The notes beneath the pieces were generated by a model that did not search any database, was not told the DNA's origin, and saw only the letters and a program-made list of their open reading frames with translations. The position numbers and the translations under genes are program-made. From IMG/VR virus record IMGVR_UViG_3300010396_000041: DNA of 64,000 bases; one strand, written 5' to 3'. Positions 1 through 54,461 of the stretch are shown here, one piece after another. Each line of letters starts with the position of its first letter. Position 1 is the stretch's first letter. The stretch comes from a virus. Taxonomy: Duplodnaviria > Heunggongvirae > Uroviricota > Caudoviricetes.

Positions 1-2341
1 GCTGCGGCGCCCCGGTCGGAACCGGCGCCGCAATGATGTCGCTCGCCTTGTTCGACGGCGAGTCAGCAGCCCGGCCAGCGGTCAGGTAACCCCGGTCGAA
101 CTGGGCAGCGTCGATCGAAGACTGAGGCACCGAGTGCGTGTTCGGGCCGTCATAGTCCATACCCGGAACCGCGCGGCCAGCCGACTGGAACGGCCGGTTG
201 AACGACCCCGGCTTGATCTGCGTCGGGTTCGGGAAGTTCGCAGGCCCAGGGTTCGCGTCACGGAACGCCTTGTGCGCCTCCAACGCGGCACCGAAGTACG
301 AATCCGAGTCCATGCCCTTCAGCGCGGTGGCCTGACGCAGCAGCGCCGCAGCTACCCGCGCCTGCTCGAACGACCCGCCGTACACGGCGTTCTCGGCCTT
401 CTCCGACCAGTACCGCAGATCCAACGTCGGGAACGTCACACCCGGGTGGCACTTCGCTGCATCTACCGGGTGGAACCCAGCGCACAGCAGATCGTGCAAC
501 GCACCCAACTCATACGGCGCGCCTGCATCCTTGATCCGGCGTGCCGCCTTCATCTCCATCAGGTACGGGCCGTCAGGGTCCGTCGGCAGCTGGGCGTCGT
601 GCTCCAGCGACTCGATGAACGGACCGTCAGGCTCACGGTGCGCAGGCACCGGCTGAATATCCACCGCGCCGACACCGACCGCGTCGCCGTCAGGCGTGGG
701 CTTGCCTTTCTCCACAGTGCCTCCTTCCGCACCCTTGACCTTGTTGTCCGCCATCGGCAGGTAGCCAGGGTTCTGCTTGCCGCACCCCGGGCAGAACTTC
801 TCACCCTTATCCAGCTGCTTCTCGCAGCCAAGGCACGTGAAATCGTGGTTCTTCGACAAAGCCTTCTTAATCGGCTTCGCCTTCGCCATCGACCCACCAC
901 ACTCAGGGCAGAACGCGTGCTTCGCGTGAATGTTCGCGCCGCACCCCGGGCACATGTTCTTCGCCTTCGCAGCCTTCTCCGACGCGACCTCGGCGGCCTT
1001 GTTCGCCTTCGGGAGCTTCGTGCCGCAGTTCTCGCACGTCTTCTGCTTCGAATCCGCGTGATAGTTCTTCCCGCAGTTCGGGCAGGCCTTCGCGCCGGTC
1101 TTCTCGACGTCGGGCTCTTCCATCTCCTCGGTCGCCTTCGCGCCCTTCTTGGAGCTGCCCGGCTTCACCTTCGGTTCCTTGCCGGTGTCATCCAGCTTGG
1201 AACCAGGCTTATCAGCGTCGGTGCCATCACCGTCAGAGTCGGTGCCGTCGAACGCGGGAGCAGCGCCAGGGAACGCCTTCTTACCCTTAGTCGACTTCTC
1301 CTCGTCGTCGCTCTCCGGCTTCGACCCGCCCATGTTCGAGGTCGGGGTCTCGTCGTCCTCGGTATCGTCCTGAGCGCCGGAAGCAGCGTCAGCGTTCATT
1401 CCCTTGTTGCTGCTCATCTCGTCCTTCCACGCCTGTGGCAGCTCAGCGACAAACGACGGGCCCTTACGCTTGGCGATCCGGATGATGTTCGACTTCAGCT
1501 TGTCGCTGGAGTAGTTGTCCGGTCCTGCCCGCCCGATCGAGGAAGCAGCGTCGGAGACGTCGCCAGGGGTCACGATCGGGAACGAGCGGTCCTTGCCAGC
1601 GAAGTCCTCAGCCGGGATCTTGTCGCGGTCCACCCCGCCACCGACGTCCGGGTCCATCTTGCGCTTCTCTACCTCGACCTCAAGGTCCTTCTTCACACCG
1701 AGCAGCTTGGCCATATCGGCGGGAGAGAAGGCGGTGGAGATCTCTTCCGGCATCTCATACGTGGTGGTGGTGGTCTTCGTGATCGACTTGGTGATCATGC
1801 GGGGGGTCTCGTCCTCAACACCCCAGACCTTGCCCACCCACTCCGGCTCACCGCTGTCAGCGGACTTCACCAGCTGGATGCCACAGTTCTTATTTGCCGG
1901 ACGGTCTACGAGGGAAATCTCAACGATCTGCCCGTCCACGATCCGCCCACCCCGGGCGACACCATCACGCACGATCTTCGGCCGGGCGATACCCACGCTG
2001 TAAGCGCGCAGAGCGCCCTTCTCCACCAGCCGCTGCGCAACAGGCTCCACCACCAAGGACTTCACCCAGGTCGAGCCGTCAGCGTCCGTGTTTGCCTCAA
2101 CCCCCACACCGGCAGGGTCGCGCTGCGAATTGTGCTGAACCCGGACGTTAGCGCCCGACGCCAGCCAATCCTGAATGGCCTTCGAAGAGAAGTCGGGATC
2201 GACGATCTGCTCGTCAGAATCAACCGAGCCGTCAGTGGCCTTGCCGTATACAACCAGGTCACCGTCGTCGTTCTTCTCGAACTTAGTGATCGGGAACGAC
2301 AGGTACGTCAGCTCGTTGGTGTTGGTCAGCGTCGCTGCCAC
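1..2341 (-). CDS. capsid maturation (prohead) protease, HK97 family, with a long C-terminal extension carrying three CxxC..CxxC zinc ribbons; 3' end runs off window start
   Basis: Manual minus-strand translation from GTG at 2341-2339 (GAAGGAG 4 nt upstream, in-frame TGA just before) stays open to nt 1. Contains the prohead protease motif ...GRIVDGQIVEISLVDRPAN, then CPNCG..CENCG, CPGCG..CPECG, CLGCE..CPGCG. Absent from the ORF track because it is truncated by the window edge. The antisense + ORF 134..2386 is R-rich junk. Confidence 0.7.
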   Translation of the reverse strand, partial: MAATLTNTNELTYLSFPITKFEKNDDGDLVVYGKATDGSVDSDEQIVDPDFSSKAIQDWLASGANVRVQHNSQRDPAGVGVEANTDADGSTWVKSLVVEPVAQRLVEKGALRAYSVGIARPKIVRDGVARGGRIVDGQIVEISLVDRPANKNCGIQLVKSADSGEPEWVGKVWGVEDETPRMITKSITKTTTTTYEMPEEISTAFSPADMAKLLGVKKDLEVEVEKRKMDPDVGGGVDRDKIPAEDFAGKDRSFPIVTPGDVSDAASSIGRAGPDNYSSDKLKSNIIRIAKRKGPSFVAELPQAWKDEMSSNKGMNADAASGAQDDTEDDETPTSNMGGSKPESDDEEKSTKGKKAFPGAAPAFDGTDSDGDGTDADKPGSKLDDTGKEPKVKPGSSKKGAKATEEMEEPDVEKTGAKACPNCGKNYHADSKQKTCENCGTKLPKANKAAEVASEKAAKAKNMCPGCGANIHAKHAFCPECGGSMAKAKPIKKALSKNHDFTCLGCEKQLDKGEKFCPGCGKQNPGYLPMADNKVKGAEGGTVEKGKPTPDGDAVGVGAVDIQPVPAHREPDGPFIESLEHDAQLPTDPDGPYLMEMKAARRIKDAGAPYELGALHDLLCAGFHPVDAAKCHPGVTFPTLDLRYWSEKAENAVYGGSFEQARVAAALLRQATALKGMDSDSYFGAALEAHKAFRDANPGPANFPNPTQIKPGSFNRPFQSAGRAVPGMDYDGPNTHSVPQSSIDAAQFDRGYLTAGRAADSPSNKASDIIAAPVPTGAPQ

Positions 2342-2382: not shown

Positions 2383-2598
2383 CTAAAGGTCGTCCTCTTC
2401 CAACGGCTCAAACTCTGTATACACCAAAGTTCGAGCTACCCACTCGGAATCAGTCGGAAGCACATACCCATAGTCGGTGAATACTGCATTGTGTCGTAGT
2501 TTGATTTTCATGCCCGCTGCTTCAAGGGCAGTCAGCGCCGCCGCCGCCTCCGTCAAAAGACGAGAGGCGACGGCAGGGTCAATGCGCTGCTTACCCAT
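2383..2598 (-). CDS. hypothetical protein (71 aa)
   Basis: ORF track. ATGA overlap with the upstream portal stop. Balanced composition. Confidence 0.5.
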   Translation of the reverse strand: MGKQRIDPAVASRLLTEAAAALTALEAAGMKIKLRHNAVFTDYGYVLPTDSEWVARTLVYTEFEPLEEDDL

Positions 2599-5500
2599 CA
2601 GTCATCCCGAGGGTTCGGCTTACCAGTGGCCTGGATGTGCCGCTCCTGGCAGAACCCCCACGCCTGGTCACTCGACATGTGCCGTGAGGCAATCGCGTGA
2701 CACGCCGTAAGGTCGCCAGGTCCACCCCAATTGATCGCCCCACCAGCGCCAGAGGCATACCAGTTACGCAGCGCCGTCGGGTTACCGCCATCCTTATGCA
2801 GCTGCTCCGCCATCTTCAGCACCGTAGGACTGATGCCCTTCGTTGCCTCCGGAGCCCACTCGTCACACACCATCTCCGGCAGGATGCTGCCTTCAACCAG
2901 AGTGCACGAATAGGTCTCGAAGTCCGGCGGGTTGATCCGGATCATCGAGCAGGTGCCGCACGCCCGCTCAGCGCTGGCAGACTCCCGGTAGTTCACCGAA
3001 GCCTTCGACACCTTGCCCTTGTTCGCAGGGTCATCACCCTGATGCAGCTGAGAGGAGTGCGTCTCTTCCCAGTCCTTATCACCAGCGGTAACCCGCGCGA
3101 TGTAGGCAGGTACCGGCTTACCCAGCGCCTTGTACGCCAGAGTGCGGTGGTGCCCATCGACGACCTTCAGCTTCGGATCGCCAGGCTCCTTCACCATGAT
3201 CGCCGGATGCAGCGCCTCACCAGCCTGGATCTTGTCCTTGAAGTGATCAACCTTGTCCCGCTGGTGATGAGCCGCCCACTTCTCCTCATCGTCGAAGTCG
3301 ATATCCGACAGCGCCACCTCGGTAGGGCCAGACCAGTCAGCCCGATCCACCCAGCCCAAAGCCGACGCCGGGAAGTTGCTGAGCATCAGCTCCTTCACCT
3401 TCGAACCGAGCGAGTCCTTCCGCGCGCCAGGGATACCCGTCACCGGTGAAGTACTCGTCCCGATCGAAGCCATCGACGGCGCCCCACCCCGAGGACCACC
3501 ACCCTGAGAAGGCTGCGGTGCCCTCGACTGCGGGTAGTCAGCGTCATCCTCGTCCGGCGGAGCGCTACGCACCCGCCGCCTCGGCTTCGACATCGTCTCA
3601 CCCGACGAGGTGCCCTCCGCAGGAGCCCAACGCGGCGGCTCTCCACCCGCACTGGGACCTGGCACCCCGCCGGGAACCTCCGGCTGCACCGGCTCATCCA
3701 TCACGACCCTACGTCCGGCACCCACCTCGATCCCGTTGACGTCGTGAGCTGGGAACACCCGGCCCCCACCGCCAGCAGGCACCCGCGCGGCAGCGGTCGG
3801 CAGCTCGTCATAGTCCGGGGCGGGTACCTCAACCACCTGCCCGTTCGTCAACACCCGCCGCAGCGTCGGACCCTTGGCGATCTCGATCGCCTGCTCGATC
3901 GACAGGCCCTTGGTCACATCCTCCTCGATGCTCATCAGCATCATCGAAGAGATGTGCTTCGGCTTCCACGAGATGATCGACCGACCCTTGCGGTAGTGCC
4001 GCGCCAGCGCAGCCAGCTCGGCATCCATCGCCTTGACCAGTCCGGGGATCAACTCGCCCTTGCCCATCTGGTCGACGACCTCGGCGATCTGAGCGGCGGT
4101 GATATCACCCCACTCCACCGACACGCCGTGGTAGCCGCCACCGGCACGGATCGCTTCGTTCTCCAGCGCAGCCAGCTCGGCGGCGATCTGGTCGCGGGTC
4201 ATCGCTTCCACAGCCGCCTGCTCGGGGATACCGGCGAGGAAGTCAGCGCGGTTAGCGATCGTCTGATCCCGCATCGCAGTAATGTCCTGCAACTGCTCGG
4301 CGTAGTAGTTCGACGCCCAGGGGCGCTGGACGTTCTCACCCCACAACGAGTCCATGTCCGGCTGGGTGTACTCCAGTGAGCAGTGGCAGTTCGGGCCGCC
4401 CAGACACACCGGGCCGCCGAACCCTCCGTTACCGGGGTAGCCAGGCAGGTTATCGAACGTGAACTTCTTGCCGTCCCGGGCGACACACAGCGAGCAGTGC
4501 TCTGCGTTCCCGAGATGCCAGATGATCGCGTACTCAGGGTGCGAGCCTTGGATCGTCTGCCCGAACGCCTGGTTGTACGCCATGTTCACGGTGTTCTCGT
4601 AGGCAGTAAGCCGGGAGTTGAGCCAGTCGAGCTCAGCCTGAGCCATACCCATCGCCGCGTAGAACAGCCCGCCGAGGAACGTCTGCTGGCTGGTCGCCAG
4701 CGTGACCGCGAGACCGGCAAAGTCCATCAGCGCGGTATCGGCATAGTCAGCGACAGCGTCTTCGCTGGCAGCGGCCATCGCCTGCTGATAGCCGTCGGCG
4801 AGGGTGTCGGTCGCGTCCGTCATCGCCTGGGCGTGAGTGATCTGCCCTGCCTGGTAGGCGGCGACAGTATCGCGCAGCGTCTGGCGCACCTGAGAGGCAG
4901 CGTCGTTCACCCGCTGCTCTCGACGGGCCTGGTGCGTCTCCTGAGCCTTGGAGATCACCGGGGTGATCGACTTCGAGGTGCCTGATGCGTCAGCTGCCTG
5001 CGCTGCCGCGTGCCCCGGGTTCGCTGATGCCCCACCCGACCCGCTCGGCTTCTTAGGGGCAGGCTTAGCGGGGGCGGAGCCGCCTCCTGAGGGCTTCCCC
5101 GGCCCGCCCGTGGGCTTGGCAGGGGCAGCGCCGTTTGCGGGCGGCTGACCGCCTCCAGCGGGCTTCGCTCCGGTCGCGCCAGGCTGCTGCCCGGCCGGGT
5201 TCTGCGCCGTCGGCTGCTGCCCCGGTGCCACATCTCCGGTCGTGGTGAGCTGACCCAGCGGAACAAACCCGGTCGCCGTCGCCCAACCCGGGTCGACAGT
5301 CTCGGGAAGACCCCACGGCTGGAGACCGAGTTCGCCGCGCGCCTCGTCAATCGAACGAAGACCCGCACCGATCTGAGTCACCAGCATCGTTGTCTGGCGC
5401 TCTTCGTCCTCGTCCTCCTCCAGGCCTTCGAAGACGAACTGCATGTCGTCCTGCTCGCAGACGTCCTGGAGCACCATGTTGAAGATCGAGGTGAGGAACG

Positions 5501-6884
5501 TCAGCAGCGGCTTGGTGGCCTTACGCTCCTGAGTCGACTGGCTTGCCTTCGCCATCTGGTTGGAAGCGCCAGGGGAGGTCGTGGTGCTCACCTTCGGCTG
5601 GATACCCAGCTCCATCGGCTGCACCCCGAATGCCATACACACCTGCGTCATGACGATCTCGTCGAACTGGTCCGCCAGCTCGGTCGGCTTCTGCGGCATC
5701 ACCTTCGAGTCGGCAGGCAGCACGATGATCTTGTGCTTCCAGGCGACATCACCAGCGATAGCGTTCAGCGCGTCCTGCAACTCACGGATCTGATTCGGCG
5801 TCATATTCGAGTTCGCGCCACCAGGCGAGACATATACCGCAGGGACCGTGCCCTCACGGAAGAAGTCCAGCTGATAGCCCTGCTTCTGCAAGCCAGCCAT
5901 CACCGGGATAAGCGCCTGCTCGATCGGCGCGAACCCGTACGGCGTCCACCGGCGAGGCGTCATCCGGTGATACAGCAGCTGATCGCCTCGGAACGCCGGA
6001 CCCTCCAGGCCCTTGTAACGCTCGATGTCCTCCTGCGTGATCATCGTCTGCAAGTCCGTACGCGGCACCCCGTACAGGTACTGCTGGAACGCCGGAGCAG
6101 GCGGGCGAGGCTTCGCGCCGTGCATATCCACCAGCGGGCGGATCGTCGGCGCCGTCACCAGACGAAGGTGCTTGAGATCAGTGCCGAACACGCCCTTGCT
6201 GTTTCCCCACGACGGCTGCATCAGCAGGGCGCAGGTGTCGTAGACCAAGACCTCTTCGAGGACCACACCGAGCCATTCAGTCCACGTATCATAGTCGGGG
6301 TCTGCGTGGTTGAAGAACTTGATCGCTTCGGCGCGGCGCTTACCGAAATCAGCTGCCTTCGTGGGGGAGCCGCGCATCGCTTTCGCGGCGTCCTTCGTCG
6401 GCATGATGTCCCAGTTCAGGCCCCGGATCTCGTTCTTACGCAGCTCGATACAAGCACGGGCGACCGAGTAGAGGTCTGCCAGGGTCCGCAGCGTCGAGAA
6501 GTCCGCCAGCTTGACCCCGCCCTCGGACCCAGGGGTGCCTACCGGAAGGTTCCAGCCGACCGGGTACTCCCACCAGCGCGGTTCCGCACGCGGGGTGTCC
6601 GGCGAGGCGGGAGCGTCAACAGGGACCGGCAGGATCGGGGAGAACGGCCCGAACGCGCCTTCAGTGAAGTCCTGAGGCAGCCGAGGCAGGAACCCGCCAT
6701 ACGCATACGACCATGACGGCCCCTGGCTGCCGCCGGTCTGGAGCTGCGCTGTCAGCGGTGAAAGCTGCCCGAAGTTGGGGTTAGCCATCTGCGGAGGCAT
6801 AGAGCCCTGGGCTCCGCCAGGGACGTGCTTAGAGAGCGGCGAGAGAGCACGAGCCACCCGGCGGGCATCCGAAGCCACAGACAA
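2598..6884 (-). CDS. portal protein fused to a MuF-like head-morphogenesis domain and a C-terminal ParB/Srx-like (DGHHR) nuclease domain (1428 aa)
   Basis: N-terminal portal-like region (GYQLDFFREGTVPAVYVSPG). G/P/A/K low-complexity linker. MuF-like region (HCSLCVARDGKKF, CLGGPNCHCSLEY). C-terminal KVVDGHHRTLAYKALG, a ParB/sulfiredoxin-type motif. Confidence 0.85.
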   Translation of the reverse strand: MSVASDARRVARALSPLSKHVPGGAQGSMPPQMANPNFGQLSPLTAQLQTGGSQGPSWSYAYGGFLPRLPQDFTEGAFGPFSPILPVPVDAPASPDTPRAEPRWWEYPVGWNLPVGTPGSEGGVKLADFSTLRTLADLYSVARACIELRKNEIRGLNWDIMPTKDAAKAMRGSPTKAADFGKRRAEAIKFFNHADPDYDTWTEWLGVVLEEVLVYDTCALLMQPSWGNSKGVFGTDLKHLRLVTAPTIRPLVDMHGAKPRPPAPAFQQYLYGVPRTDLQTMITQEDIERYKGLEGPAFRGDQLLYHRMTPRRWTPYGFAPIEQALIPVMAGLQKQGYQLDFFREGTVPAVYVSPGGANSNMTPNQIRELQDALNAIAGDVAWKHKIIVLPADSKVMPQKPTELADQFDEIVMTQVCMAFGVQPMELGIQPKVSTTTSPGASNQMAKASQSTQERKATKPLLTFLTSIFNMVLQDVCEQDDMQFVFEGLEEDEDEERQTTMLVTQIGAGLRSIDEARGELGLQPWGLPETVDPGWATATGFVPLGQLTTTGDVAPGQQPTAQNPAGQQPGATGAKPAGGGQPPANGAAPAKPTGGPGKPSGGGSAPAKPAPKKPSGSGGASANPGHAAAQAADASGTSKSITPVISKAQETHQARREQRVNDAASQVRQTLRDTVAAYQAGQITHAQAMTDATDTLADGYQQAMAAASEDAVADYADTALMDFAGLAVTLATSQQTFLGGLFYAAMGMAQAELDWLNSRLTAYENTVNMAYNQAFGQTIQGSHPEYAIIWHLGNAEHCSLCVARDGKKFTFDNLPGYPGNGGFGGPVCLGGPNCHCSLEYTQPDMDSLWGENVQRPWASNYYAEQLQDITAMRDQTIANRADFLAGIPEQAAVEAMTRDQIAAELAALENEAIRAGGGYHGVSVEWGDITAAQIAEVVDQMGKGELIPGLVKAMDAELAALARHYRKGRSIISWKPKHISSMMLMSIEEDVTKGLSIEQAIEIAKGPTLRRVLTNGQVVEVPAPDYDELPTAAARVPAGGGGRVFPAHDVNGIEVGAGRRVVMDEPVQPEVPGGVPGPSAGGEPPRWAPAEGTSSGETMSKPRRRVRSAPPDEDDADYPQSRAPQPSQGGGPRGGAPSMASIGTSTSPVTGIPGARKDSLGSKVKELMLSNFPASALGWVDRADWSGPTEVALSDIDFDDEEKWAAHHQRDKVDHFKDKIQAGEALHPAIMVKEPGDPKLKVVDGHHRTLAYKALGKPVPAYIARVTAGDKDWEETHSSQLHQGDDPANKGKVSKASVNYRESASAERACGTCSMIRINPPDFETYSCTLVEGSILPEMVCDEWAPEATKGISPTVLKMAEQLHKDGGNPTALRNWYASGAGGAINWGGPGDLTACHAIASRHMSSDQAWGFCQERHIQATGKPNPRDD

Positions 6885-6894
6885 CCCCTTCCTG

Positions 6895-9528
6895 TTAATC
6901 CAGCACCCAAGCTGTCGTGGGAGCCGTGCCGGTCGAAGCGTTGACCACCCACCAGCAGCCCGCAGGCACCCGGAACGTGATCAGCGGGAGCGCGCCAGCG
7001 GCCTGCGAGTAGATCGTCGTGAGCGCAGGAGCAGTAGCACTACCCGCCAGCGACGATACCTGGATGGAGGTGATATTGGTGCCGCCGGAAGCCACCACCG
7101 TGGCATCACGCCAGAACGTGTTGGCCTGTGCGGTGTTCAGAGTGAAGCTCGGCGAAGCGACCGCGCCGCGCACCTGCTGCTCTTTGATGATCCGCAGGTT
7201 CGTTGCGAACGTCGGGGTGATCGACGAAGGCGACCCGGTGAACCTGATCTCACCCGCTGCCGCCGCGAGGCTGGTGCCGGTGTTCGGGTTGTCGCGCAGC
7301 TGGACGGTGCCTTCAGTGTCGAGCACTGCGTGAACGATCGGGCCGATACCGGCGGCGCCGGGTCCGAAGAAGTTCAGGTGGTAGGTGCATGCCTCCACGC
7401 ACGCCTGGTCGAACCAGGAGGCGTGCAGCGCGGAGACCACTCCGGCCGAGCCGCCGTCGCCGTAGTTACCGACCGGGCACAGCCCAGACCAGCAGTACAG
7501 CAGGGTGACGTTGTTGCCGACGGTGTGTTCCATCGCCAGCAGGGCGTAGGTGTAGCCGCCGTTGCACACCACGTTGTTGAGGTAGTTCGAGGCGTTGTTG
7601 CCGTTCGACGGCATGATCAGCCCAGCCGACAGGCCGCCGGAGAACAATGTCACGTTCGTGAAGTCGCCGCTGTTGCCGTTGTACAGCTCGATCACGCCTG
7701 TGGTGCCGTACGCGAAGTTCCGGGCGTGGAAGCGGGCAGCGCCGAACATGTTCGCGGCGCTGTAGGTCCACCCGGCGTTCGAGTGCGTGGTCAGGATCGA
7801 GATGTCCTGGAAGACCACGCAGGTGTTCGAGTACACCGGGGTGGGGGTGCCGACCCCGAACCCGTTGAACCCGGTGCCGCAGCCGATCACCGAGGGGTTG
7901 CCTCCGAAGCCGCCAGAGGTTCCGGCGATTGATTGCGACTGAAGGGCGGCAGTGGTGAACACCCCGAAGGAGACCAGCGGCGACCCGGACCAGAACGGGT
8001 AGGAGGCGTTCCAGTAGCGGGTCTGCCCGCCGTCTCCTGCGCCCTTGAACACCAGGGTGACACCCGGGTTGCGTTCCGGGTTGATCGGAATGGTCAGCTG
8101 GGAATTAAACGCGATGTTGGTGCCGTCGGTGTGCTTGAGCGGGCCGCCGATCCCGAAGAACTTGCCCGTCGGGCTCGGGATGGTGATCTCTGCCAGCCCG
8201 TGCGCCTGGGCGTAGGTGTTCGCTGCCGCGATAGCCGACTGGAACGCGGCAGTGTCATCGGTGGCCCACAGCACCTGGAGACCGGACGCGGTCAGCGTGG
8301 GCGTGGTGTTCCAGGTGGCGGTGAAGCTGGTTGCGGAGTTCACGGCGGTGATGGTGCCCACCGAGGTGGTCTGCCCGCTGGTGGTCTGATTCTGGAGGGC
8401 GTTTTTGACCATGACGACCTTGCCGACGTCGCCGGAAGTCAGGACCGACTCGCCGATAGTGACGGTGCTGGAGGTCGCGGTGGTCGCCCCAGTGTTGCTG
8501 ACCTTCCCATCGCCTTTGGCGCCGTAGGCGTAGACGCTGAACTGGTAGGCCTGCAAGGGGTGGGTGTGCCCGAGGTCTGCTGCGGTGTTGGTGGTGCCGA
8601 GCGCGGCAGGTCCGTCAGGCTGAAGCAGCGTGGCGTTCGAGCCGTATTCCACTGCGCCTTGCGCGAGGGTGGTCGCGGCCGGGAGATCGGCTGCCTGGAT
8701 CGCTGCCAGCGCCGCGTTGACGCCATCGGAACGCAGGTAGTGCCCTGCCGACTGGGTGCCGGTGAGGGTGTTGATGGCTGCCTGCGCGGTGGCTGCTGCT
8801 GTACCGCCCTGGGCGAGGGGCAGCGGCGCGGCAAGGTGGGTGGCGGTGACCTGTGGGCTGCCTGCGATGCCGCCGAGGTCTCCGGTCAGCTGGACGATTC
8901 CTTCAGCGGCGTTCGTCGCGGCAGGTAGCTGGGTGGGGGTGGCGGTGCCGGAGATCTGCGCGAAGGAGTAGTCGCCGGTCTGTGCGGTGACGGCTCCGGT
9001 GCGGGTGAAGACGGAGGAGACTCCGCCGCTGATGGTGTGCCAGGTTCCGTCGCCTGCCAGGAACTCGGTGCTGATTCCTGGCGGGGTGGTGATGGGGGTG
9101 GTGCCGAGGGTGAAGGTGCCGGTGAAGGTGTTGGCACCGCTCCAGGTGTTGGGTCCTGCCAGGGTGCCGTAGGCGGTGAGGGTGGGCGCGGTGGAGTACT
9201 GGGCGAGGTCGGCGATATTGAGGGTGCCGGTGCCGGTGGGCTTGATGTAGTAGCTGGAGGTGACGGTGCTGATGGAGTTGTACTGGATGGTCTCGACGAC
9301 CTTGTAACCCCAGCCGGTGGGGGTGACGCCTGCGGTGTCGGTGGGTAGCAGCGCGACGGAGAGGGCTCCGTTGGTCAGGGCGGCGGTGATGGTCAGCTGC
9401 GGGAGCATGACGCCTTGGGTGGTGGCGGCGAGTTCTGCGGTGGGGGTGAAGGTGACGGTGCCTCGTACGGGGTTGCCGGAGGCGTCGCTGTAGGTGCCGA
9501 TCACGGTACAGGTCGGCGGAAAGCTCAT
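6895..9528 (-). CDS. tail fibre/tailspike-like protein with pectate-lyase-type right-handed beta-helix (877 aa)
   Basis: T/G/S/A-rich. Motif YAYGAKGDGKV...TDDTAAFQSAIAAANTY is typical of the pectate-lyase-3 / tailspike beta-helix N-cap. The + ORFs 6775..7932 and 7933..8928 are antisense artefacts. Confidence 0.7.
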   Translation of the reverse strand: MSFPPTCTVIGTYSDASGNPVRGTVTFTPTAELAATTQGVMLPQLTITAALTNGALSVALLPTDTAGVTPTGWGYKVVETIQYNSISTVTSSYYIKPTGTGTLNIADLAQYSTAPTLTAYGTLAGPNTWSGANTFTGTFTLGTTPITTPPGISTEFLAGDGTWHTISGGVSSVFTRTGAVTAQTGDYSFAQISGTATPTQLPAATNAAEGIVQLTGDLGGIAGSPQVTATHLAAPLPLAQGGTAAATAQAAINTLTGTQSAGHYLRSDGVNAALAAIQAADLPAATTLAQGAVEYGSNATLLQPDGPAALGTTNTAADLGHTHPLQAYQFSVYAYGAKGDGKVSNTGATTATSSTVTIGESVLTSGDVGKVVMVKNALQNQTTSGQTTSVGTITAVNSATSFTATWNTTPTLTASGLQVLWATDDTAAFQSAIAAANTYAQAHGLAEITIPSPTGKFFGIGGPLKHTDGTNIAFNSQLTIPINPERNPGVTLVFKGAGDGGQTRYWNASYPFWSGSPLVSFGVFTTAALQSQSIAGTSGGFGGNPSVIGCGTGFNGFGVGTPTPVYSNTCVVFQDISILTTHSNAGWTYSAANMFGAARFHARNFAYGTTGVIELYNGNSGDFTNVTLFSGGLSAGLIMPSNGNNASNYLNNVVCNGGYTYALLAMEHTVGNNVTLLYCWSGLCPVGNYGDGGSAGVVSALHASWFDQACVEACTYHLNFFGPGAAGIGPIVHAVLDTEGTVQLRDNPNTGTSLAAAAGEIRFTGSPSSITPTFATNLRIIKEQQVRGAVASPSFTLNTAQANTFWRDATVVASGGTNITSIQVSSLAGSATAPALTTIYSQAAGALPLITFRVPAGCWWVVNASTGTAPTTAWVLD

Positions 9529-17666: not shown

Positions 17667-19097
17667 CTAGTTCTCGCAGCCGCACTTCGGGCAGCGGTCG
17701 TGAATCTCAGGCAGGTACGGGTGCTTGCACTCCTGACAGGTGATCGCCCCGTACCCCTCCATCCACGAGCCCTCCGTCAGCCCCGTCAGCTCCGTCGCCG
17801 CCCACACCAGCGCATCCATCCGGTCCGGGCTGCCCGAGAGGCCAGGCACGTAGGTGCACAGCTGGTCCTCCAGCTCCGGCAACGTCCCGACATGATGCAT
17901 ACGGCCCTGCTCGTACAGGGAAGAGATCGGCTCCGCCCTGATGGTCTTGCCCCTGGAGGCACGCACCTGCTTGTAAGGAACGTTACGGTCCACAGCCCGC
18001 AGAGTCCGGCCGATGTAGTCGCCGCCGTTGTTCACCTCAGCAACGATGCAGTCAGCTTTGAACTCCCGGTACACCCACAGGGCCCGGCGCATCACCTCGT
18101 CAGGGGTGCCCCGGAACGAGTAGTCACCCAGGACGTAGCCGTGATCACCCTGATGCCCGACCACGACGATGCCTGACTCGTCCGACTCATCGCCGGAGGT
18201 CACCGCAGGGTCGATCGCTACCACGACGCGGGTGAGGTTCGGGACCTCTTCCTTCCCGACCCGGTACTGGTCGATCACCGTGCGCGACCACAGGGCGCCC
18301 TCAATGTCCTCCAACAGCTCGCCTTCGAGCTCCTGGCGGCCCAGGCGGGAACCTTCGTAGCGATGCTTGAGCTCCGCCAGCGCTGTCGCCGAGAGGTTCA
18401 GCGCGTTCTCCCAGGTCGATCCCCGGGTGATGTGGACCGAGCCGTCCTTGCGGCCGAACAGGTCCCGGATCAGCTTCGTCGGGCGCGGGGTGGTGGTGAC
18501 CACGATGCGGGGTTTCTCGCCTTTACGCAGCGCAGGGACCAGTCCCTCATGCCAGGTGGCTTCGTAGCGCCAGGAGCCGAGCTCATCACACCAGGCGCCC
18601 CACAGGTTCGCGCCTCGGGCGCGTTCGGGCTGGTCGGCGGAGTAGCCGTAGATCACGGAGTTGTTCTTCAGCATGATCTGTAGCTCGTTGCGGCGGTAGT
18701 TCGCCAGCTGGTCCTCGCCGAGGGCTTTCAGCACGCCGGTGGAGCCTTCGAGGCAGGTCTTGCGCACGTCACGGAACGTGGGTGCGAACACCGCCCATTC
18801 GGAGCCGGGGAACTTCAGCGCCTGCTTCACCAGCCAGGTCGAGCCGACCAGGGACTTGCCGAATCCTCGGCCGGACATCAGCAGCCAGATCACGAAGTCG
18901 TCGTCTGGGCCTTGGCAGCCGCAGGTGAAGCCGTTGCCGTCAGGCTTGTGGTGGTCTGGGTGGTCGGGGGGTAGCTGCTTGGGTCGGAAGGTGTCGGGGT
19001 AGCGGGAAGCGCGAAGCACGCCGAGTCTGGCTTGTAGGGCCATGTACTCGGCGTGCTTCTGCTCTAGCAGGCGTTTAATCTCCCGTGGGTCATCCAC
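17667..19097 (-). CDS. terminase large subunit (476 aa)
   Basis: Terminase-like N-terminal region (SGRGFGKSLVGSTWLVKQALKFPGSEWAVFAPTF). C-terminal Zn ribbon (CQECK...CPKCGC). Confidence 0.9.
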   Translation of the reverse strand: MDDPREIKRLLEQKHAEYMALQARLGVLRASRYPDTFRPKQLPPDHPDHHKPDGNGFTCGCQGPDDDFVIWLLMSGRGFGKSLVGSTWLVKQALKFPGSEWAVFAPTFRDVRKTCLEGSTGVLKALGEDQLANYRRNELQIMLKNNSVIYGYSADQPERARGANLWGAWCDELGSWRYEATWHEGLVPALRKGEKPRIVVTTTPRPTKLIRDLFGRKDGSVHITRGSTWENALNLSATALAELKHRYEGSRLGRQELEGELLEDIEGALWSRTVIDQYRVGKEEVPNLTRVVVAIDPAVTSGDESDESGIVVVGHQGDHGYVLGDYSFRGTPDEVMRRALWVYREFKADCIVAEVNNGGDYIGRTLRAVDRNVPYKQVRASRGKTIRAEPISSLYEQGRMHHVGTLPELEDQLCTYVPGLSGSPDRMDALVWAATELTGLTEGSWMEGYGAITCQECKHPYLPEIHDRCPKCGCEN

Positions 19098-19593
19098 GCT
19101 GTTCCTCGGCGGCGATCTGCTCGTTGAGTTCGGCGATAGCGGCGTCGAACGCGGAGGAGATGTTCACCTCTGCCTTCACGTTGATCTTCAGGGCTGCGTC
19201 CAGGCCGAGGAGCTTGGCGCGGCGTTCCTGGATCGCCAGTAGGTCCCTACGGGCACGGGAGTTGGGTGCCGTGTCGTAGATGGGGGTGCCGTCGGGGTTG
19301 ACGGCGATGCGGCCTGACTGGGTGACGTGGGGGTGGCGGGTGAGGGCTTCGCGCCAGGCGATGGCGCGCAGGGAGTCGAGTTCTTCGAGCTGTTCGGCAA
19401 CGATCTCGTCGACGGTGGAGCGGAGTTCGGCGGCGCGCTGGGAGAAGCCGAGGGAGGCGTCTTTGCGTGCGGTGCCTTCGGTGATGCCGAGTTCGCGTGC
19501 GATGTCCGCGTATCGGGCGCCGCGTGCTTTCATGGCGATGACTCGGGTGCGGCGCTCGGCGACCTCGGCCTGCTTTGCGATGTTCGCAGGCAT
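19090..19593 (-). CDS. terminase small subunit (HTH) (167 aa)
   Basis: HTH ARGARYADIARELGITEGTARKDASLG. 8-nt overlap with terL. Confidence 0.75.
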   Translation of the reverse strand: MPANIAKQAEVAERRTRVIAMKARGARYADIARELGITEGTARKDASLGFSQRAAELRSTVDEIVAEQLEELDSLRAIAWREALTRHPHVTQSGRIAVNPDGTPIYDTAPNSRARRDLLAIQERRAKLLGLDAALKINVKAEVNISSAFDAAIAELNEQIAAEEQRG

Positions 19594-32515: not shown

Positions 32516-34129
32516 CTAGAACGGCCAGGTGCCGTTACGACCCGCCTCCAGCAGCGGAATCAGGCGGAACGCCTGGTCCGTCAGCCCGCCGAAGGTGTGC
32601 CGGTTCTCACTGCCCGACGGAGCGTGCCCGTAGCGGTAGCCCGCCAGGTTCCAGGTGTAGACCGGCACCGTCTTCGGGACCGCTGCCGTCACATCCCAGG
32701 CGCCGTGGTAATCCGCCTGCTCGTCCGTCAGGATGATCACCCGGTCGTGTGCCTTGTAGTGCGTCGAGACCGCCTGCTGCGTCGAGGTACCACCCAGGTC
32801 GGTGAACCGGTCGATCAGCTTGAGCACCGAGTCGCCCGTGCGGAAACGCACCTCATGCGAGGAGGAGCCGAACTGAACGAGGTCAGCCTTCTCCGCGCGC
32901 AGCGCCAGCGCCGTACCGAACAAGGCTGCCGAGTCGGCGCGGTTCAACTGCGTCTTCTCGGAGATCCCGCCGAACATCGATCCGGAGCGGTCTACCAGCA
33001 CCAGAGTGCGGCCCGGCAAGCTCGGGACGTTCTCCAGCGACATGTTCAGCGCCTGCTCCAGCGGCCACGCCCAGCGCAGCCCGGAGTGCTTGTACGCGGC
33101 GAGGAACCGGAACGGGAACTGGCGCGACTTGCGGACCTCGTCGAGGTTGGCGATCCGCGCGGCGACCGCGTTCGCGGCGCCTTCGCTGATCTTCTTCTCG
33201 TCGAAGTTACGCAGGTTCCTGATCAAGGCCATATAGCCCATGGTCGGGATCTGCTTCTCCCAGGTGGCGCCGTCCATCGCGCCCTGCTTCCACCCGGCCG
33301 TCGCCTCCCAGGTCATGCCAGCCTTCGCCAGCTGCTCCGAAGCGTCGTCCGAGGCGAGCAGAGCCGCCTTCTCCTCGGCGTCGAGGGACGTCAGCTCCTT
33401 ACGGGCGGTGATGGTCTTGAGCCGTGCCGACGCCGGGTTCTCCGGGTCCTCACGGTCGTGACGGCGGTCGATCGCGTGCTCGAACAGGTCACCCTGCCAG
33501 GCCTTACCGACCGCCGGGCCCGGGTGCACCAGCTCCAGCACATCGCCCATACGCACCGCGTCGCCCTTGCTGTCGTACTTGAGCAGGCTGCGCTCGTTGT
33601 ACAGGCGCCGGGTCGCGTCGCCGAGACCGCGCTTGACCGGCTTCGGCATGGCCTTGCCGTACTTCGAGATCCAGTACGCCAGCAGCTCGGCAGGCTCGTC
33701 GGCGCGCTGGCAGGCAGCGTCGATCGCGCGGCGGTTGAAGCCGCGCACCTCGAAGACGGTGCCGACTCCCTCGCCGTCCTCGACCACCTTCGCGTCGATA
33801 CGGGCCTTCACCAGCTCGGCGGCCATGACCAGAGAAGCCGAGCGCATGTTGGCCTCGTTGCGCAGCCACGGGATCATCCGGACCAGCCAGTCCGGGTCCT
33901 CCAGCGCCACCTGGTGCACCAGCTGCTCGAAACGCGCGTCGCGCTGGTCGGCGCGCTCGTAGTAGGTGTTCTCGCCCACCATGTTGGTCACCGCGAGCAG
34001 GAACAGCTCAGACTTCGCGTCGCGGGCGAAGCCGGGGGCGCCGTTGAAGGTACGGCCGGTCGGGGTCTTCGCGGTCTTCACCGGGGAAGTGGTACGCGGC
34101 TTGGCGGTGGCGGTGTTGAACTTCGACAT
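32516..34129 (-). CDS. rsr: Ro60/Rsr ortholog (TROVE domain + C-terminal vWA/MIDAS), about 537 aa
   Basis: MSKFNT...TNMVGENTYYE TROVE-type N-terminus. C-terminal LVLVDRSGSM MIDAS. ATG 34129 with GAGGGGAG RBS; alternative GTG 34165. Confidence 0.85.
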   Translation of the reverse strand: MSKFNTATAKPRTTSPVKTAKTPTGRTFNGAPGFARDAKSELFLLAVTNMVGENTYYERADQRDARFEQLVHQVALEDPDWLVRMIPWLRNEANMRSASLVMAAELVKARIDAKVVEDGEGVGTVFEVRGFNRRAIDAACQRADEPAELLAYWISKYGKAMPKPVKRGLGDATRRLYNERSLLKYDSKGDAVRMGDVLELVHPGPAVGKAWQGDLFEHAIDRRHDREDPENPASARLKTITARKELTSLDAEEKAALLASDDASEQLAKAGMTWEATAGWKQGAMDGATWEKQIPTMGYMALIRNLRNFDEKKISEGAANAVAARIANLDEVRKSRQFPFRFLAAYKHSGLRWAWPLEQALNMSLENVPSLPGRTLVLVDRSGSMFGGISEKTQLNRADSAALFGTALALRAEKADLVQFGSSSHEVRFRTGDSVLKLIDRFTDLGGTSTQQAVSTHYKAHDRVIILTDEQADYHGAWDVTAAVPKTVPVYTWNLAGYRYGHAPSGSENRHTFGGLTDQAFRLIPLLEAGRNGTWPF

Positions 34130-34171
34130 GGTGGTGCTCCCCTCTTTCTGGGTGGCAGAGGGCACACGAAA

Positions 34172-50116: not shown

Positions 50117-50994
50117 AGCTCACCCGCCGAGATCGCCGCTGGAACGTCGTCGGGGAACACCGCGAGATATAGCACGGTGCCTTTCGTCCGCCAGCCCTCC
50201 GGCGGCGTGACCTTGTGGCGAACGGCCATAGCCTCCCCCATTTTCATGTGCGCGACCATACCTGCTCGTTTCAGCATCGCACGTTCTAACTTGAATTGTT
50301 CAGGTGTGCGACGCTTCGCCTGGGCGAACCCGACCGCGCCGATCAGGTGAGTGGAGATCCCGTGCGCGGTCAGCAGCTGCCGGTCCGTTGGCGACCTGAC
50401 GGGCCGCCCACATAGCACCACCCTGAACCGGCGGGTCGAAGGGTTCCACAGCCGTGCCTCGCCGAAGCGCACCCCAGCCGACCAGGTACTGGAGTCGACG
50501 CTGTAGAACGGTAGGGCGCTAAGAAGCTGCGGGGAGGTCTGTCCGAAGCCGTGGAAGCGGGTGCCGTACTGCTCGCCGATCTTGAAGCAGCGGATCAGCC
50601 AGCGGCCCAGCGTCGAGACCTGGTTGCCGAACGGCACCATCCCGCCGAGCGCGATGTACGGGTACTCCTGACACAGCTTCTCCAGCCGGTCGAACCCGGA
50701 GCCGGTGTGGAACACCGGGATCACCTTCAGGCCGTCAGCGTTGAGTTTCACGGTGTTGCGTTGGGTGGCCTCGGGGTCGCCGATCACGTCCAAGGTGGCT
50801 GCGGTGGTGATGAACCGGCGGTGCTCGCCCAGCCAGGCCTTGTAGTCGGCGAGCTTCACCTGAGCGCCGATCGAGGCAGCCGAATACGCCCCCGAGTCGG
50901 CGAAGATCTCCGAACCCGGGGGCAGCTTGCGACTCAGCGCCGCGACGTCGGTATCACGGTGATAGTGAAAGGAGAGCAGGACCCGGACTCTCAC
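50113..50994 (-). CDS. tRNA-guanine transglycosylase-like (DpdA-like) paralog 2 (293 aa)
   Basis: Alignable with paralog 1 over about 270 aa (FADSGAYSAASIGAQVKLADYKAWL..., ALGGMVPFG...). Confidence 0.6.
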   Translation of the reverse strand: MRVRVLLSFHYHRDTDVAALSRKLPPGSEIFADSGAYSAASIGAQVKLADYKAWLGEHRRFITTAATLDVIGDPEATQRNTVKLNADGLKVIPVFHTGSGFDRLEKLCQEYPYIALGGMVPFGNQVSTLGRWLIRCFKIGEQYGTRFHGFGQTSPQLLSALPFYSVDSSTWSAGVRFGEARLWNPSTRRFRVVLCGRPVRSPTDRQLLTAHGISTHLIGAVGFAQAKRRTPEQFKLERAMLKRAGMVAHMKMGEAMAVRHKVTPPEGWRTKGTVLYLAVFPDDVPAAISAGEL

Positions 50995-51599
50995 GCATCG
51001 GCCCGCGCCTTCTGGATCAGATGCATAAACCGGTCATTGTCGTCGTTCGGGTTCATACAGCCGTTGGTCAGCTCATAGAAGTCATCGCGGACGTTCGGGG
51101 GGACCTTGAACCGCAGGGTGGGCCAGAGGTCTTCCTCGTCGTGCTCGCCGAACTCGGTCTCCAGGTCGTCGAGGGAAGGCGGCTCATCGCCTTCCTCACC
51201 GCCGAGGAGCGCTGCCAGCTCCTCGAAGTCCTCGGCGTGGTAGCCGGTGCCGGAGAAGTCGCCGTCCAGCCGCTCCAGGAGCACCAGGAGGGCGTCGTCG
51301 TCGTAGGTGGCGATGTCGCTGGTGCGGTTCGCCGAGAGCATGATCTTCAGGGCGCGGGCGTCGTCCACGTCGACCAGTACCACGTCGATGGTGTCCCAGC
51401 CGAGCTGGCGCGCGGCCAGCAGGGTGTGGTTACCCGACAGTACATATCGGGTGGATGCCTGGACGACCAGGGGGGAGTACTGGCCGTTCTCTTTCAGCGA
51501 CTCGGCGATGATGTTCGGGTCGCCCCGGCGTGCATTCTCGGGATGCGTGATGAGTGAGTCGGTTTCTACCGTCTCGATATTGTCAAGGAGGGAACCCAT
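50991..51599 (-). CDS. ParB-like nuclease-domain protein (202 aa)
   Basis: LITHPENARRGD...VLSGNHTLLAARQLG ParB N-terminal motifs. Acidic C-terminus. Confidence 0.7.
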   Translation of the reverse strand: MGSLLDNIETVETDSLITHPENARRGDPNIIAESLKENGQYSPLVVQASTRYVLSGNHTLLAARQLGWDTIDVVLVDVDDARALKIMLSANRTSDIATYDDDALLVLLERLDGDFSGTGYHAEDFEELAALLGGEEGDEPPSLDDLETEFGEHDEEDLWPTLRFKVPPNVRDDFYELTNGCMNPNDDNDRFMHLIQKARADA

Positions 51600-53534: not shown

Positions 53535-53549
53535 ATGCTACGCTACTCG
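53535..53549 (+). promoter_or_regulatory. conserved motif variant ATGCTACGCTACTCG
   Basis: 63 nt upstream of GTG 53613. Confidence 0.5.
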
Positions 53550-53612
53550 ACATCGGCAACGCCCCCACAGCTGAACCTCCATTCACCACAACCCAGCGAA
53601 AGGACACCACTG

Positions 53613-54461
53613 GTGCCCGAAACCCTGATCAACCCGGTCGTCAACGCGCCGGACCCCACGTGGGTGCTCATCACTCCCGAGATGGCCGCAGAGTGGCTGA
53701 AGGAGCTCAACACCCACAACCGGCGGCTCAACATGGGCCACGTCGAGTCGCTGTCGCGCGACATGATGGCCGGTAAGTGGCTGCCGAACAACAACGCCAT
53801 CGCCTTCGGCATCAACCCGGAAGGCCGGGAAGTCCTCCTCGACGGACAGCACCGCCTGGCCGCCATCCGCCGCGCCGGGGTCGCCATCCCGATGCTGGTC
53901 CAGCGTGGCCTGCCCATGGACTCGCAGAAGGCCATGGACATCAACCGGGCGCGCACCTACAAGGACCAGCTGCACCTGGACGACATCAAGAACTCCTCGA
54001 CCATCGCCGCCGTGCTCCGGCGCATCTGCCTGTGGGAGGCAGGGTCCTACCGTTCCAACAACTCGACGTTCAAGCCCACGCGCGCCGAGATGGACGAGAT
54101 GTTCGCCGCGCACCCCGACCTCGTCAAGGACGCGGACTGGGCACGGGGCCGGGCAGCTTCACTCCAGCTGGCCCCGACGGTGGCAACCTTCGTGCGGTGG
54201 CTGCTGCGCGAGACCAACGAGAAGGAAGGCATCTGGTTCACCGACCGGATGTACGACCTGCACGAGCTGCCGCGCGACCACATCATCCAGGTGCTTCACC
54301 GGCGTATCTCTCGGGAGCGGGAGATGCGCGCGTACGGGCCGGATGACTACACGGCTCTGATCATCAGGGCCTGGAACTACTACCGGCGCGGCGAGACCCC
54401 CGTGAAGATCCAGATGCCGGGAATGCTGACCAACGAGACGTTCCCGCGTCCGGTGGTCTGA
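53613..54461 (+). CDS. DGQHR-domain (DndB/ParB-like) protein (282 aa)
   Basis: ORF 53535..54461 trimmed to GTG 53613 (GAAAGGA RBS). LLDGQHRLAAIRRAG. Confidence 0.6.
   Translation: MPETLINPVVNAPDPTWVLITPEMAAEWLKELNTHNRRLNMGHVESLSRDMMAGKWLPNNNAIAFGINPEGREVLLDGQHRLAAIRRAGVAIPMLVQRGLPMDSQKAMDINRARTYKDQLHLDDIKNSSTIAAVLRRICLWEAGSYRSNNSTFKPTRAEMDEMFAAHPDLVKDADWARGRAASLQLAPTVATFVRWLLRETNEKEGIWFTDRMYDLHELPRDHIIQVLHRRISREREMRAYGPDDYTALIIRAWNYYRRGETPVKIQMPGMLTNETFPRPVV

Follow-up and report, generated by a model that had tools for sequence, protein, structure and literature searches.

The window analysed here, that is the whole stretch of 64,000 nucleotides from the tailed-virus record IMGVR_UViG_3300010396_000041 (Caudoviricetes, IMG/VR; GC content 65%), encodes on its minus strand a protein of 1428 amino acids (aa) in which a phage portal is followed by a long C-terminal extension. 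A first-pass annotation made from the sequence had described it as a fusion of a portal, a MuF-like domain and a ParB/sulfiredoxin-type (ParB/Srx) domain in one open reading frame (ORF), and we show here that all three indeed lie in a single frame on the minus strand. The count of three was too low, since a helical module (X), a domain resembling high-potential iron-sulfur proteins (HiPIP-like) and a C-terminal helical domain (Ct) had been missed. The fusion thus holds at least six modules, separated in part by low-complexity linkers.

2598..6884, minus strand: whole fusion ORF, 1428 aa, one coding frame; public gene calls P0001 and P0122 are 100% identical
5250..6884, minus strand: N-terminal region and portal, aa 1-545 (Pfam, PHROG, tblastn)
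4965..5249, minus strand: linker 1, low-complexity A/G/P/Q/K, aa 546-640 (composition; motif (S/T)PGHxAAxA)
4044..4964, minus strand: MuF-like head-morphogenesis module, aa 641-947 (Pfam below threshold, hhalign, Foldseek against BFVD)
3726..4043, minus strand: module X, helical, aa 948-1053 (conservation in homologues; helix pLDDT 77-89)
3408..3725, minus strand: linker 2, P/G/S-rich, aa 1054-1159 (composition and conserved motifs)
3009..3407, minus strand: ParB/sulfiredoxin-fold domain, aa 1160-1292 (DGHHR at aa 1243-1247, nt 3144-3158)
2841..3008, minus strand: HiPIP-like Cys4 domain, aa 1293-1348 (profile against PDB HiPIPs, ligand pattern)
2601..2840, minus strand: C-terminal helical domain (Ct), aa 1349-1428 (phrog_6439; motif WGxPGDxxxC)

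The portal and the modules of its extension

The frame runs from 6884 to 2598 in 1428 codons and opens with a TTG at 6884, directly 5' of which lies the Shine-Dalgarno sequence AGGAAGGGG. The ATG at 6800 is an alternative start, used by the public gene call P0001, that gives 1400 aa. Homologue N-termini begin to align at residues 1-5 of the 1428-aa version, which favours the TTG at 6884 or a GTG at 6878 over this ATG. The stop is the TGA at 2598-2600, whose last base is shared with the ATG of the next ORF (TGATG). A sequencing frameshift between the domains had been raised in the first-pass annotation itself, and none is seen: the GC content at third codon positions lies between 0.72 and 0.89 in every 100-codon block of the fusion frame, no homopolymer of at least 7 bases occurs within the ORF, the identical protein (P0001 and P0122 among the public calls) is found on 106.5 kb contigs of a soil phage in the JGI (metagenome 3300025906), ENA and Logan assemblies, and the single-ORF layout recurs in more than 100 diverged homologues from other samples. 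Together, the even coding frame, the three identical assemblies and the one-ORF homologues exclude a frameshift or chimera for practical purposes. At the nucleotide level, megablast of the fusion ORF found no match among 50,697 deposited phage records.

Pfam Phage_portal (PF04860) matches aa 141-519 (nt 5328-6464) with E=9.3e-14, at 51.8 bits against a cut-off of 39.1 and over profile positions 2-320 of 321, phrog_2662 (portal) matches at 1.7e-46, and annotated portal proteins recovered by tblastn are about 30% identical to this part of the fusion. The gene is located in a head-morphogenesis module, with the large terminase gene (TerL) upstream and a protease-like gene downstream on the same strand. 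The fusion ORF is a genuine phage portal protein with a C-terminal extension, and this extension comprises the 883 residues after the portal (93 kDa) and is acidic (isoelectric point, pI, 5.4).

The MuF-like module falls below the Pfam threshold (PF04233, E=0.014; 16.5 bits, with the cut-off at 29.6). When 19 homologues were combined into a profile, hhalign aligned it with canonical MuF over the W..C..C...PNCxC core (E=5e-4, probability 32%), and the core residues follow a helical region as W789..C797-x2-C800...C827..N-C833-H-C835. The AlphaFold model has a mean predicted local distance difference test (pLDDT) score of 68, and its best Foldseek matches in BFVD (probability 1.00, E 1e-5 to 1e-3) are a minor capsid protein, a phage head morphogenesis domain and an Arthrobacter-phage capsid maturation protease. 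The module is encoded straight after the portal, fused to it here and as a separate gene or on the next gene in relatives (loci L034, L045, L055), and the homologues P0106 and P0116 carry a canonical PF04233 domain at the equivalent place behind the portal, after module X. The predicted structure thus identifies a MuF fold, although the profile cut-off is missed. Inteins (Hint, Intein_splicing, LAGLIDADG) are present in 8 of the best 120 relatives and are inserted exactly before Cys416 of the portal (P0023, P0054, P0086, P0118) or before Cys833 in the N-C-H-C string of MuF (P0027, P0098, P0101, P0104, P0107), which marks both sites as functionally critical. Module X is recognized by the conserved string SELEALARHxRKGR..W.P.HI and ends with AGGGG..PHDxxGI; it has no Pfam or PDB match, and a MuF+X profile gave chance matches only when run against PDB sequences. 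For Ct the sole match is phrog_6439, a family of unknown function (1.9e-8). Its model consists of four helices (pLDDT 70-90), and a BFVD search with the C-terminal model, in which the ParB domain dominated, returned nothing for Ct. In some related loci Ct sits on the neighbouring gene.

The ParB/Srx module was modelled at a pLDDT above 90 and shares its fold with sulfiredoxin and the N-domain of ParB. Among solved structures it is closest to sulfiredoxin, PadC, SbnI and SerK, all ATP/CTP-binding enzymes or switches, and PadC and KorB are among its best structural matches. A profile of the family run against PDB sequences finds SerK, the Pyrococcus SerK homologue 1vk1 and SbnI over about 70 residues, NCBIfam independently reports SerK, and the DGHHR string of the fusion is the same as that of SerK. 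A lack of the expected residues on alignment, the other objection foreseen at first pass, is not seen either, as G1244-H-H-R1247 is invariant in alignments of 22, 33 and 49 sequences and preserves a GxxR-type motif. Across ParB-fold proteins the Arg of GxxR is needed for binding of nucleoside triphosphates (NTP), be it ATP, CTP or GTP (PMC12704722). Pfam and NCBIfam scans detected no helix-turn-helix (HTH) and no dimerisation domain in the fusion, and the module is acidic (pI 5.9). The intact GxxR, the relatives that use ATP, ADP or CTP and the lack of a DNA-binding domain speak for an enzyme or switch that depends on NTP rather than for a nuclease; judged from its sequence, the module most likely binds a nucleoside tri- or diphosphate.

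Assignment to canonical ParB, SerK/SbnI or DdrB-like ParB was not successful. An identity as canonical ParB partition protein or DNA clamp was rejected, as HTH and dimerisation domain are missing, the motif is DGHHR and not GERRxR, and there is no ParA context. Pfam ParB_N (PF02195) does not match the fusion even at E<=10, and a precomputed PF02195 match exists in one relative only (P0010). Membership in SerK/SbnI was rejected because the match to NF053625 is confined to profile positions 32-87 and reaches 20.8 bits, far below the cut-off of 380; compared to SerK and SbnI, the fusion also lacks their C-terminal substrate domain and stands in a virion context, not in metabolism. The catalytic Cys of sulfiredoxin is replaced by His. 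A DdrB-like ParB was likewise rejected (hhalign against P1 DdrB, probability 0.5%, E=0.11). A 2025 survey of the ParB-CTPase fold relied, among other models, on PF02195, which misses the DGHHR domain, and term searches of its text gave no instance of 'portal', 'MuF', 'virion' or 'capsid'.

The HiPIP-like domain follows directly and is defined by Y1299, C1309-x2-C1312-x14-C1327-x12-C1340 and W1343, of which all four Cys, the Tyr and the Trp are invariant in 43 sequences. When these 43 sequences were run as a profile against the PDB, HiPIPs were found exclusively (3h31 at 7.6e-7, PioC at 1.2e-6 and two more below 0.01), and the Cys residues align with the cluster ligands of PioC and 3h31. The spacing C-x2-C-x8..14-C-x12-C and the conserved Tyr and Trp are shared with HiPIPs such as PioC, Iro and those of Rhodoferax and Thermochromatium. 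Pfam HIPIP (PF01355) does not match this copy and matches 14 of the 43 family members (best 2.3e-5); those scanned singly reach about 20-21 bits, where the cut-off is 22. The NCBIfam match is to Iro, an iron oxidase of HiPIP type (4.2e-4). We therefore regard the segment as a probable iron-sulfur domain that, to judge from its ligand pattern, would bind a [4Fe-4S] cluster. Whereas true HiPIPs are secreted and carry electrons in the periplasm, the domain here is internal to a cytoplasmically assembled phage protein, where no signal peptide is possible. In four related loci (L078, L080, L082, L085) it is encoded as its own 165-aa ORF directly after the fusion.

The G/P/A/K linker pointed out at first pass is present (aa 546-640), with 95 residues and an A+G+P content of 60%. 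Its motif (S/T)PGHxAAxA recurs in homologues both with and without MuF, and in linker 2 the motif ..IGT..SPVTGIPGARK directly precedes the ParB/Srx module. Such short conserved motifs inside variable linkers ((S/T)PGHxAAxA, WPQGGHGTGQxP..G.PG..KG, IGT..SPVTGIPGARK, DPNPVxAEHV, AGGGG..xPHDxxDI) are candidate protease or docking sites. A check for processing sites in the linker had been proposed, and recurrent conserved motifs are indeed found there; however, a common cleavage consensus sought at the module boundaries gave only these short motifs and no defensible rule.

Conservation, shuffling and splitting across the family

A search of 5.8 billion proteins yielded 665 relatives, and our census covers the best 120 of them (119 without the self-hit). 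All 120 are portal fusions of 901-2401 aa, many of them on contigs of 90-111 kb. Their content of modules, with the median identity to the query, is as follows.

Portal: present in all of 120 relatives, median identity 69%
Module X: present in 109 of 119 relatives, median identity 42%
ParB/Srx: present in 117 of 119 relatives, median identity 50%
MuF: present in about half of 120 relatives, median identity 41%
HiPIP-like Cys4: present in 51 of 120 relatives, median identity 51%
Ct: present in 29 of 120 relatives, median identity 38%

By its median identity we rank the ParB/Srx module second only to the portal, and the DGHHR string is exact in 116 of the 120 relatives. The two relatives without ParB carry an ADP-ribosyltransferase (ART) or a zeta toxin at its place. 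The variable parts are NUDIX (60 relatives), 2H phosphoesterase (7), ART (3) and zeta toxin (1), nucleotide- or NAD-directed enzymes that are typical of injected effectors. Module order varies as well, and ParB-HiPIP-Ct, ParB-HiPIP-NUDIX and HiPIP-NUDIX-ParB were all seen. The expectation that ParB/Srx is a variable C-terminal cargo of MuF is not upheld by this constancy of motif and sequence, nor by the fusion of the domain to portals without MuF.

An exhaustive search of 1.84 billion representatives with a ParB-only hidden Markov model gave 921 clusters, defined at 50% identity, for E<=1e-3 and 299 for the stricter E<=1e-30. These counts delimit the DGHHR ParB/Srx domain as a compact sequence family that is well separated from ordinary ParB proteins. 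The domain is fused to three other portal families besides that of the query, in some cases without any MuF. Further representatives join it to Portal_Mu, Phage_portal_3, a Mu gpI-type protease or MuF, and also to NUDIX, ART, Arr, a Tle3 lipase or an ATLF protease. Among P0125-P0130 and L071/L072 (5650-12138), some relatives contain two DGHHR domains in tandem, and others are proteins of 1.4-2.2 k residues with the DGHHR domain at the N-terminus and no recognizable Pfam domain. Hosts named in the genome records are Mycobacterium, Kitasatospora, Actinocrinis and other Actinomycetota.

The genomic arrangement was followed in contigs, where a single-protein query found nothing and a profile-based scan succeeded, giving 175 loci in IMG/VR, 80 of which were read. 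In about 63 of these 80, portal and ParB lie within one ORF. Comparison with phages that have separate portal and MuF genes, as proposed in the first-pass annotation, was possible at nine IMG/VR loci, where the set is divided at the linkers into neighbouring genes; at several of these loci the genes overlap by 4 nt. The arrangement is portal-MuF / X-ParB in L045, portal-MuF / X-ParB-Ct in L055 and portal-X / MuF(+intein)-ParB-NUDIX-HiPIP-Ct in L034, and L040, L051 and L063 are further cases. The modules can hence work as separate polypeptides. At the other extreme, minimal proteins of about 650 aa combine a different canonical portal (Pfam E 1e-26 to 1e-29) with the DGHHR domain alone (L054, L067 in IMG/VR). 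One such gene was found in an isolate, Kitasatospora humi RB6PN24 (L089, NZ_JAJJPA010000008.1, 4501-6441), where a 646-aa portal+DGHHR-ParB protein is encoded in a prophage-like region, at about 180-193 kb of that record, directly behind a 521-aa ORF of terminase size; tblastn with this protein against the 50,697 deposited phage genomes found no relative of its non-portal part. The Kitasatospora gene is a possible cultured entry point for experiments.

Genes around the fusion

The remaining features of the window that bear on the fusion or on ParB-like genes, or that received a family label, are the following.

1..2340, minus strand: protease-like gene truncated at the window edge, 1013 aa on the complete contig (L004:14460-17501)
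2383..2598, minus strand: 71-aa ORF overlapping the fusion stop (TGATG), no family match
6895-9528, minus strand: 877-aa ORF directly upstream of the fusion, no Pfam, PHROG or NCBIfam family, a 30-residue hint of a DUF5907 repeat
17667-19097, minus strand: TerL, 10.8 kb upstream of the fusion, many small ORFs between
19090-19593, minus strand: 167-aa protein just upstream of TerL, PHROG labelled 'RNase E' (4e-22)
32516-34165, minus strand: 549-aa protein, PHROG 'RNA-binding protein' (5e-59)
50991-51599, minus strand: 202-aa ParB-like protein, phrog_723 (9e-42), Box II SGNH and not GxxR
53535-54461, plus strand: 308-aa protein with DGQHR at aa 103, phrog_5931 of unknown function

Besides the window's own contig, 33 related loci have a homologue of the 71-aa ORF behind the fusion, whatever the C-terminal modules are. 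This conservation irrespective of the C-terminal module argues that there is no co-varying immunity gene, and the 71-aa ORF was rejected as a candidate for one. An adjacent prohead protease had been proposed; a protease-like gene is indeed present, two genes downstream of the portal. The 1013-aa protein combines an N-terminus resembling HK97-type prohead proteases with several zinc-ribbon (DZR) repeats and an acidic or low-complexity stretch. It is an unusual protease/scaffold-like fusion and a candidate processing enzyme. On the full contig a 604-aa gene follows it, and in the relative L001 a tail tube gene is found further on.

The spacing of 10.8 kb between TerL and the portal is atypical. 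The 167-aa protein next to TerL may be the small terminase. Both additional ParB-superfamily genes mentioned at first pass are real: the standalone gene matches its PHROG family, and the DGQHR string lies in the 308-aa ORF. Neither is closely paralogous to the domain carried by the portal (best E=0.075, the weak match to the DGQHR protein), and no other paralogue of any module was found elsewhere in the window.

The proposed portal-tethered modules, competing explanations and known systems

The C-terminal crown of HK97-, SPP1- and P22-type portals faces the capsid interior. The ORF, its folds, their conservation, shuffling and splitting and the Actinomycetota host range are shown here, and the location, processing and ejection of the extension, its binding of nucleotide and cluster, and its target are inferred. 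By analogy with the known portals, we consider it moderately probable that the C-terminal extension is carried inside the capsid as a set of portal-tethered modules. The extension would resemble beads on a string, with MuF, X, ParB/Srx, the HiPIP-like domain and Ct connected by two long low-complexity linkers. Since portals are dodecamers, placed at one capsid vertex, the fusion would guarantee that 12 copies of every module are built into each procapsid, and it would replace the non-covalent recruitment of MuF by the portal in SPP1-type phages. Because the same modules occur as adjacent genes cut at the linkers, the covalent link would be a device for delivery and stoichiometry rather than a functional requirement. 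Linker motifs and a neighbouring protease make proteolytic release plausible, although unproven; the candidate prohead protease two genes downstream probably frees or loosens the modules, which would probably leave together with the DNA via the portal channel. In the ParB/Srx module the motif for phosphate binding, GxxR, has the form known from SerK and SbnI (DGHHR) and would bind an NTP or the corresponding diphosphate. Of the virion-delivered, DNA-acting activity suggested at first pass, carriage inside the virion is the most economical reading, while the DNA-acting part is not supported by an acidic protein without HTH whose relatives bind ATP or CTP.

Several observations weigh against carriage of injected modules. 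Pfam ParB_N, Phage_Mu_F and HIPIP are all below cut-off on the fusion itself, and the HiPIP-like segment was modelled at a pLDDT below 50, so that its fold is not confirmed by the model, although a low value is expected without the cluster. The protease assignment of the 1013-aa gene is weak (TIGR01543, E=1e-3). When the ParB+Cys4 region and Ct were searched by tblastn against the 50,697 phage genomes, no relative of the non-portal parts was found. The interior topology is taken over from other portal structures. Finally, the near-universality of the ParB module speaks against its being purely an effector in an arms race and fits a structural or packaging role as well. Two options for this constancy beside portals are alive, a universally needed injected activity, exerted together with the NUDIX, 2H and ART modules found in relatives, or a structural, gating role.

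In the latter case, 12 ParB/Srx domains below the portal crown would pair on nucleotide, in the way that the N-domains of ParB pair with CTP, and control DNA retention and the start of ejection; together with MuF and X they might hold the first-packaged DNA end or plug the channel, with the iron-sulfur cluster stabilizing the assembly or sensing redox state. This is in line with a domain that almost all relatives possess beside the portal, in well conserved form, and that recurs on four portal families and in minimal portal+ParB proteins without any effector-like domain. PadC and KorB, nucleotide-dependent dimerising ParB folds, are among its best structural matches, and SPP1 gp7 is a portal-bound protein that is needed for efficient infection (PMC5576092). 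However, the best matches sulfiredoxin, SbnI and SerK are monomeric enzymes, an HTH for DNA binding is missing, both the module and the extension as a whole are acidic, and the domain is also found at the N-terminus of proteins on the scale of 1.4-2.1 kb and fused to ART- or Tle3-type effectors, with no portal in that ORF. A gate is thus possible but not likely. A packaged and injected ParB-like nuclease that nicks or degrades host DNA or phage ends appears improbable to us, even though non-specific DNase or nicking activity was reported for Osa, for the Pyrococcus SerK homologue PF0380 and for ParB-methylase fusions (PMC5512222; PMC5120207), the invariant DGHHR/GxxR pocket is the site to which the reported DNase activity was assigned, and the genome holds two further ParB-like genes. 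The family with the exact motif, SerK/SbnI, proved to be kinases, though the close homologue PF0380 of Pyrococcus furiosus was reported as a nuclease (PMC5120207); moreover, the domain has no detectable similarity to the head-packaged DdrB-like ParB of P1, lacks a DNA-binding module, is acidic and is conserved rather than variable.

The toxin logic implied at first pass finds little to build on. A MuF-type polymorphic toxin for inter-bacterial competition, with the 71-aa ORF as immunity protein, would follow the concept of Jamet et al. (PMC5576092), and in relatives MuF is followed by swappable C-terminal domains (ART, zeta toxin, Tle3, ATLF), while here a small ORF directly follows the gene. 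But no toxin domain is recognizable in the fusion, the 71-aa ORF is homologous across the 33 other loci whatever the C-terminal module, the tie to an essential portal binds the protein to the virion, and the gene belongs to a phage genome of about 106 kb and not to a prophage remnant, all of which makes this explanation very unlikely. Still less credit is due to a frameshift or chimera joining separate portal, MuF and ParB genes: the modules are separate genes in some related loci, but the evenly coding frame without homopolymer tracts, the three identical assemblies and more than 100 diverged one-ORF homologues leave hardly any room for it.

Portal-tethered delivery has precedents in part. 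In polyvalent proteins, portal or MuF domains are fused to enzymes (PBECR, 2H, InPase) and read as packaged and injected; ParB/Srx-fold domains are listed there as a hub domain, and head-packaged ParB domains are described (PMC5512222). Like these proteins (Iyer, Burroughs, Anand, de Souza and Aravind, 2017; PMC5512222), the fusion stands in a virion-gene context and its homologues carry 2H, ART and NUDIX. In contrast, their ParB is of the DdrB-like family, whereas here it is of the DGHHR type and a constant core rather than a swappable effector. The text of that study contains no occurrence of 'HiPIP' and one of 'Nudix' (DGHHR, module X and Ct were not searched for there). A related architecture is that of the Arthrobacter phages Sonali (gp3, 995 aa) and Mufasa8 (gp3, 1000 aa), by Pfam portal-NUDIX-MuF, for which SEA-PHAGES uses the annotation label 'portal and MuF-like fusion protein'. 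In both, one ORF combines an enzyme domain and MuF with a portal that belongs to the same Pfam family as here (28-30% identity), and it adjoins terminase and a capsid maturation protease, similar to the fusion locus. They differ in the order portal-NUDIX-MuF and in the lack of ParB/Srx, HiPIP, X and Ct; their genomes are about 60 kb compared to about 106 kb here, and their MuF is above the Pfam cut-off.

Similarity to SPP1 gp7, Mu gpF and the MuF polymorphic toxins (Jamet et al., 2017; PMC5576092) lies in the W..C..C...NCxC core, the fold and the position behind the portal, and relatives of the fusion show a diversity of C-terminal domains as MuF toxins do. SPP1 gp7 is bound to the portal and recruited into the procapsid via the portal (PMC5576092). 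Unlike gp7, MuF is joined covalently to the portal here, implying 12 copies compared to the 1-2 reported for gp7. Unlike the MuF polymorphic toxins, the fusion has neither a recognizable toxin domain nor a co-varying immunity gene. Literature searches for portal-MuF fusions returned genome announcements only, and those for HiPIP-like domains in phage virion proteins gave nothing relevant. Thus, the portal/MuF polyvalent kind of fusion is known, and we did not find described this domain set, which is common to hundreds of uncultured Actinomycetota phages, nor the DGHHR ParB/Srx domain as a conserved portal partner, nor a HiPIP-like domain in a phage structural protein.

It is tempting, if speculative, to see in the DGHHR ParB/Srx domain, often together with the HiPIP-like domain, a dedicated and hitherto unrecognized capsid-internal device of Actinomycetota phages, one that is linked to a portal, MuF or a prohead protease in about 900 protein clusters. 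It would be either a universally needed phosphotransferase that is injected and disarms a conserved actinobacterial response, or a gate, controlled by nucleotide and redox state, for retaining and ejecting the genome. If this were true, an iron-sulfur/NTP switch would for the first time be known as part of a portal vertex. Should the ParB/Srx and HiPIP-like domains bind NTP and an iron-sulfur cluster, respectively, both folds would be extended into virion biology. A conserved module set is exposed that current domain libraries do not recognize, as is plain from Pfam ParB_N missing the DGHHR domain. Capsid-internal proteins are poorly known outside of models such as T4 Alt and the T4 internal proteins, P1 Dar, the N4 virion RNA polymerase (vRNAP) and SPP1 gp7. 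To the question of how internal proteins enter the capsid, the family gives a natural answer that is genetically hard-wired, and it offers a handle on early infection in Actinomycetota that is relevant to work on Streptomyces and Mycobacterium phages.

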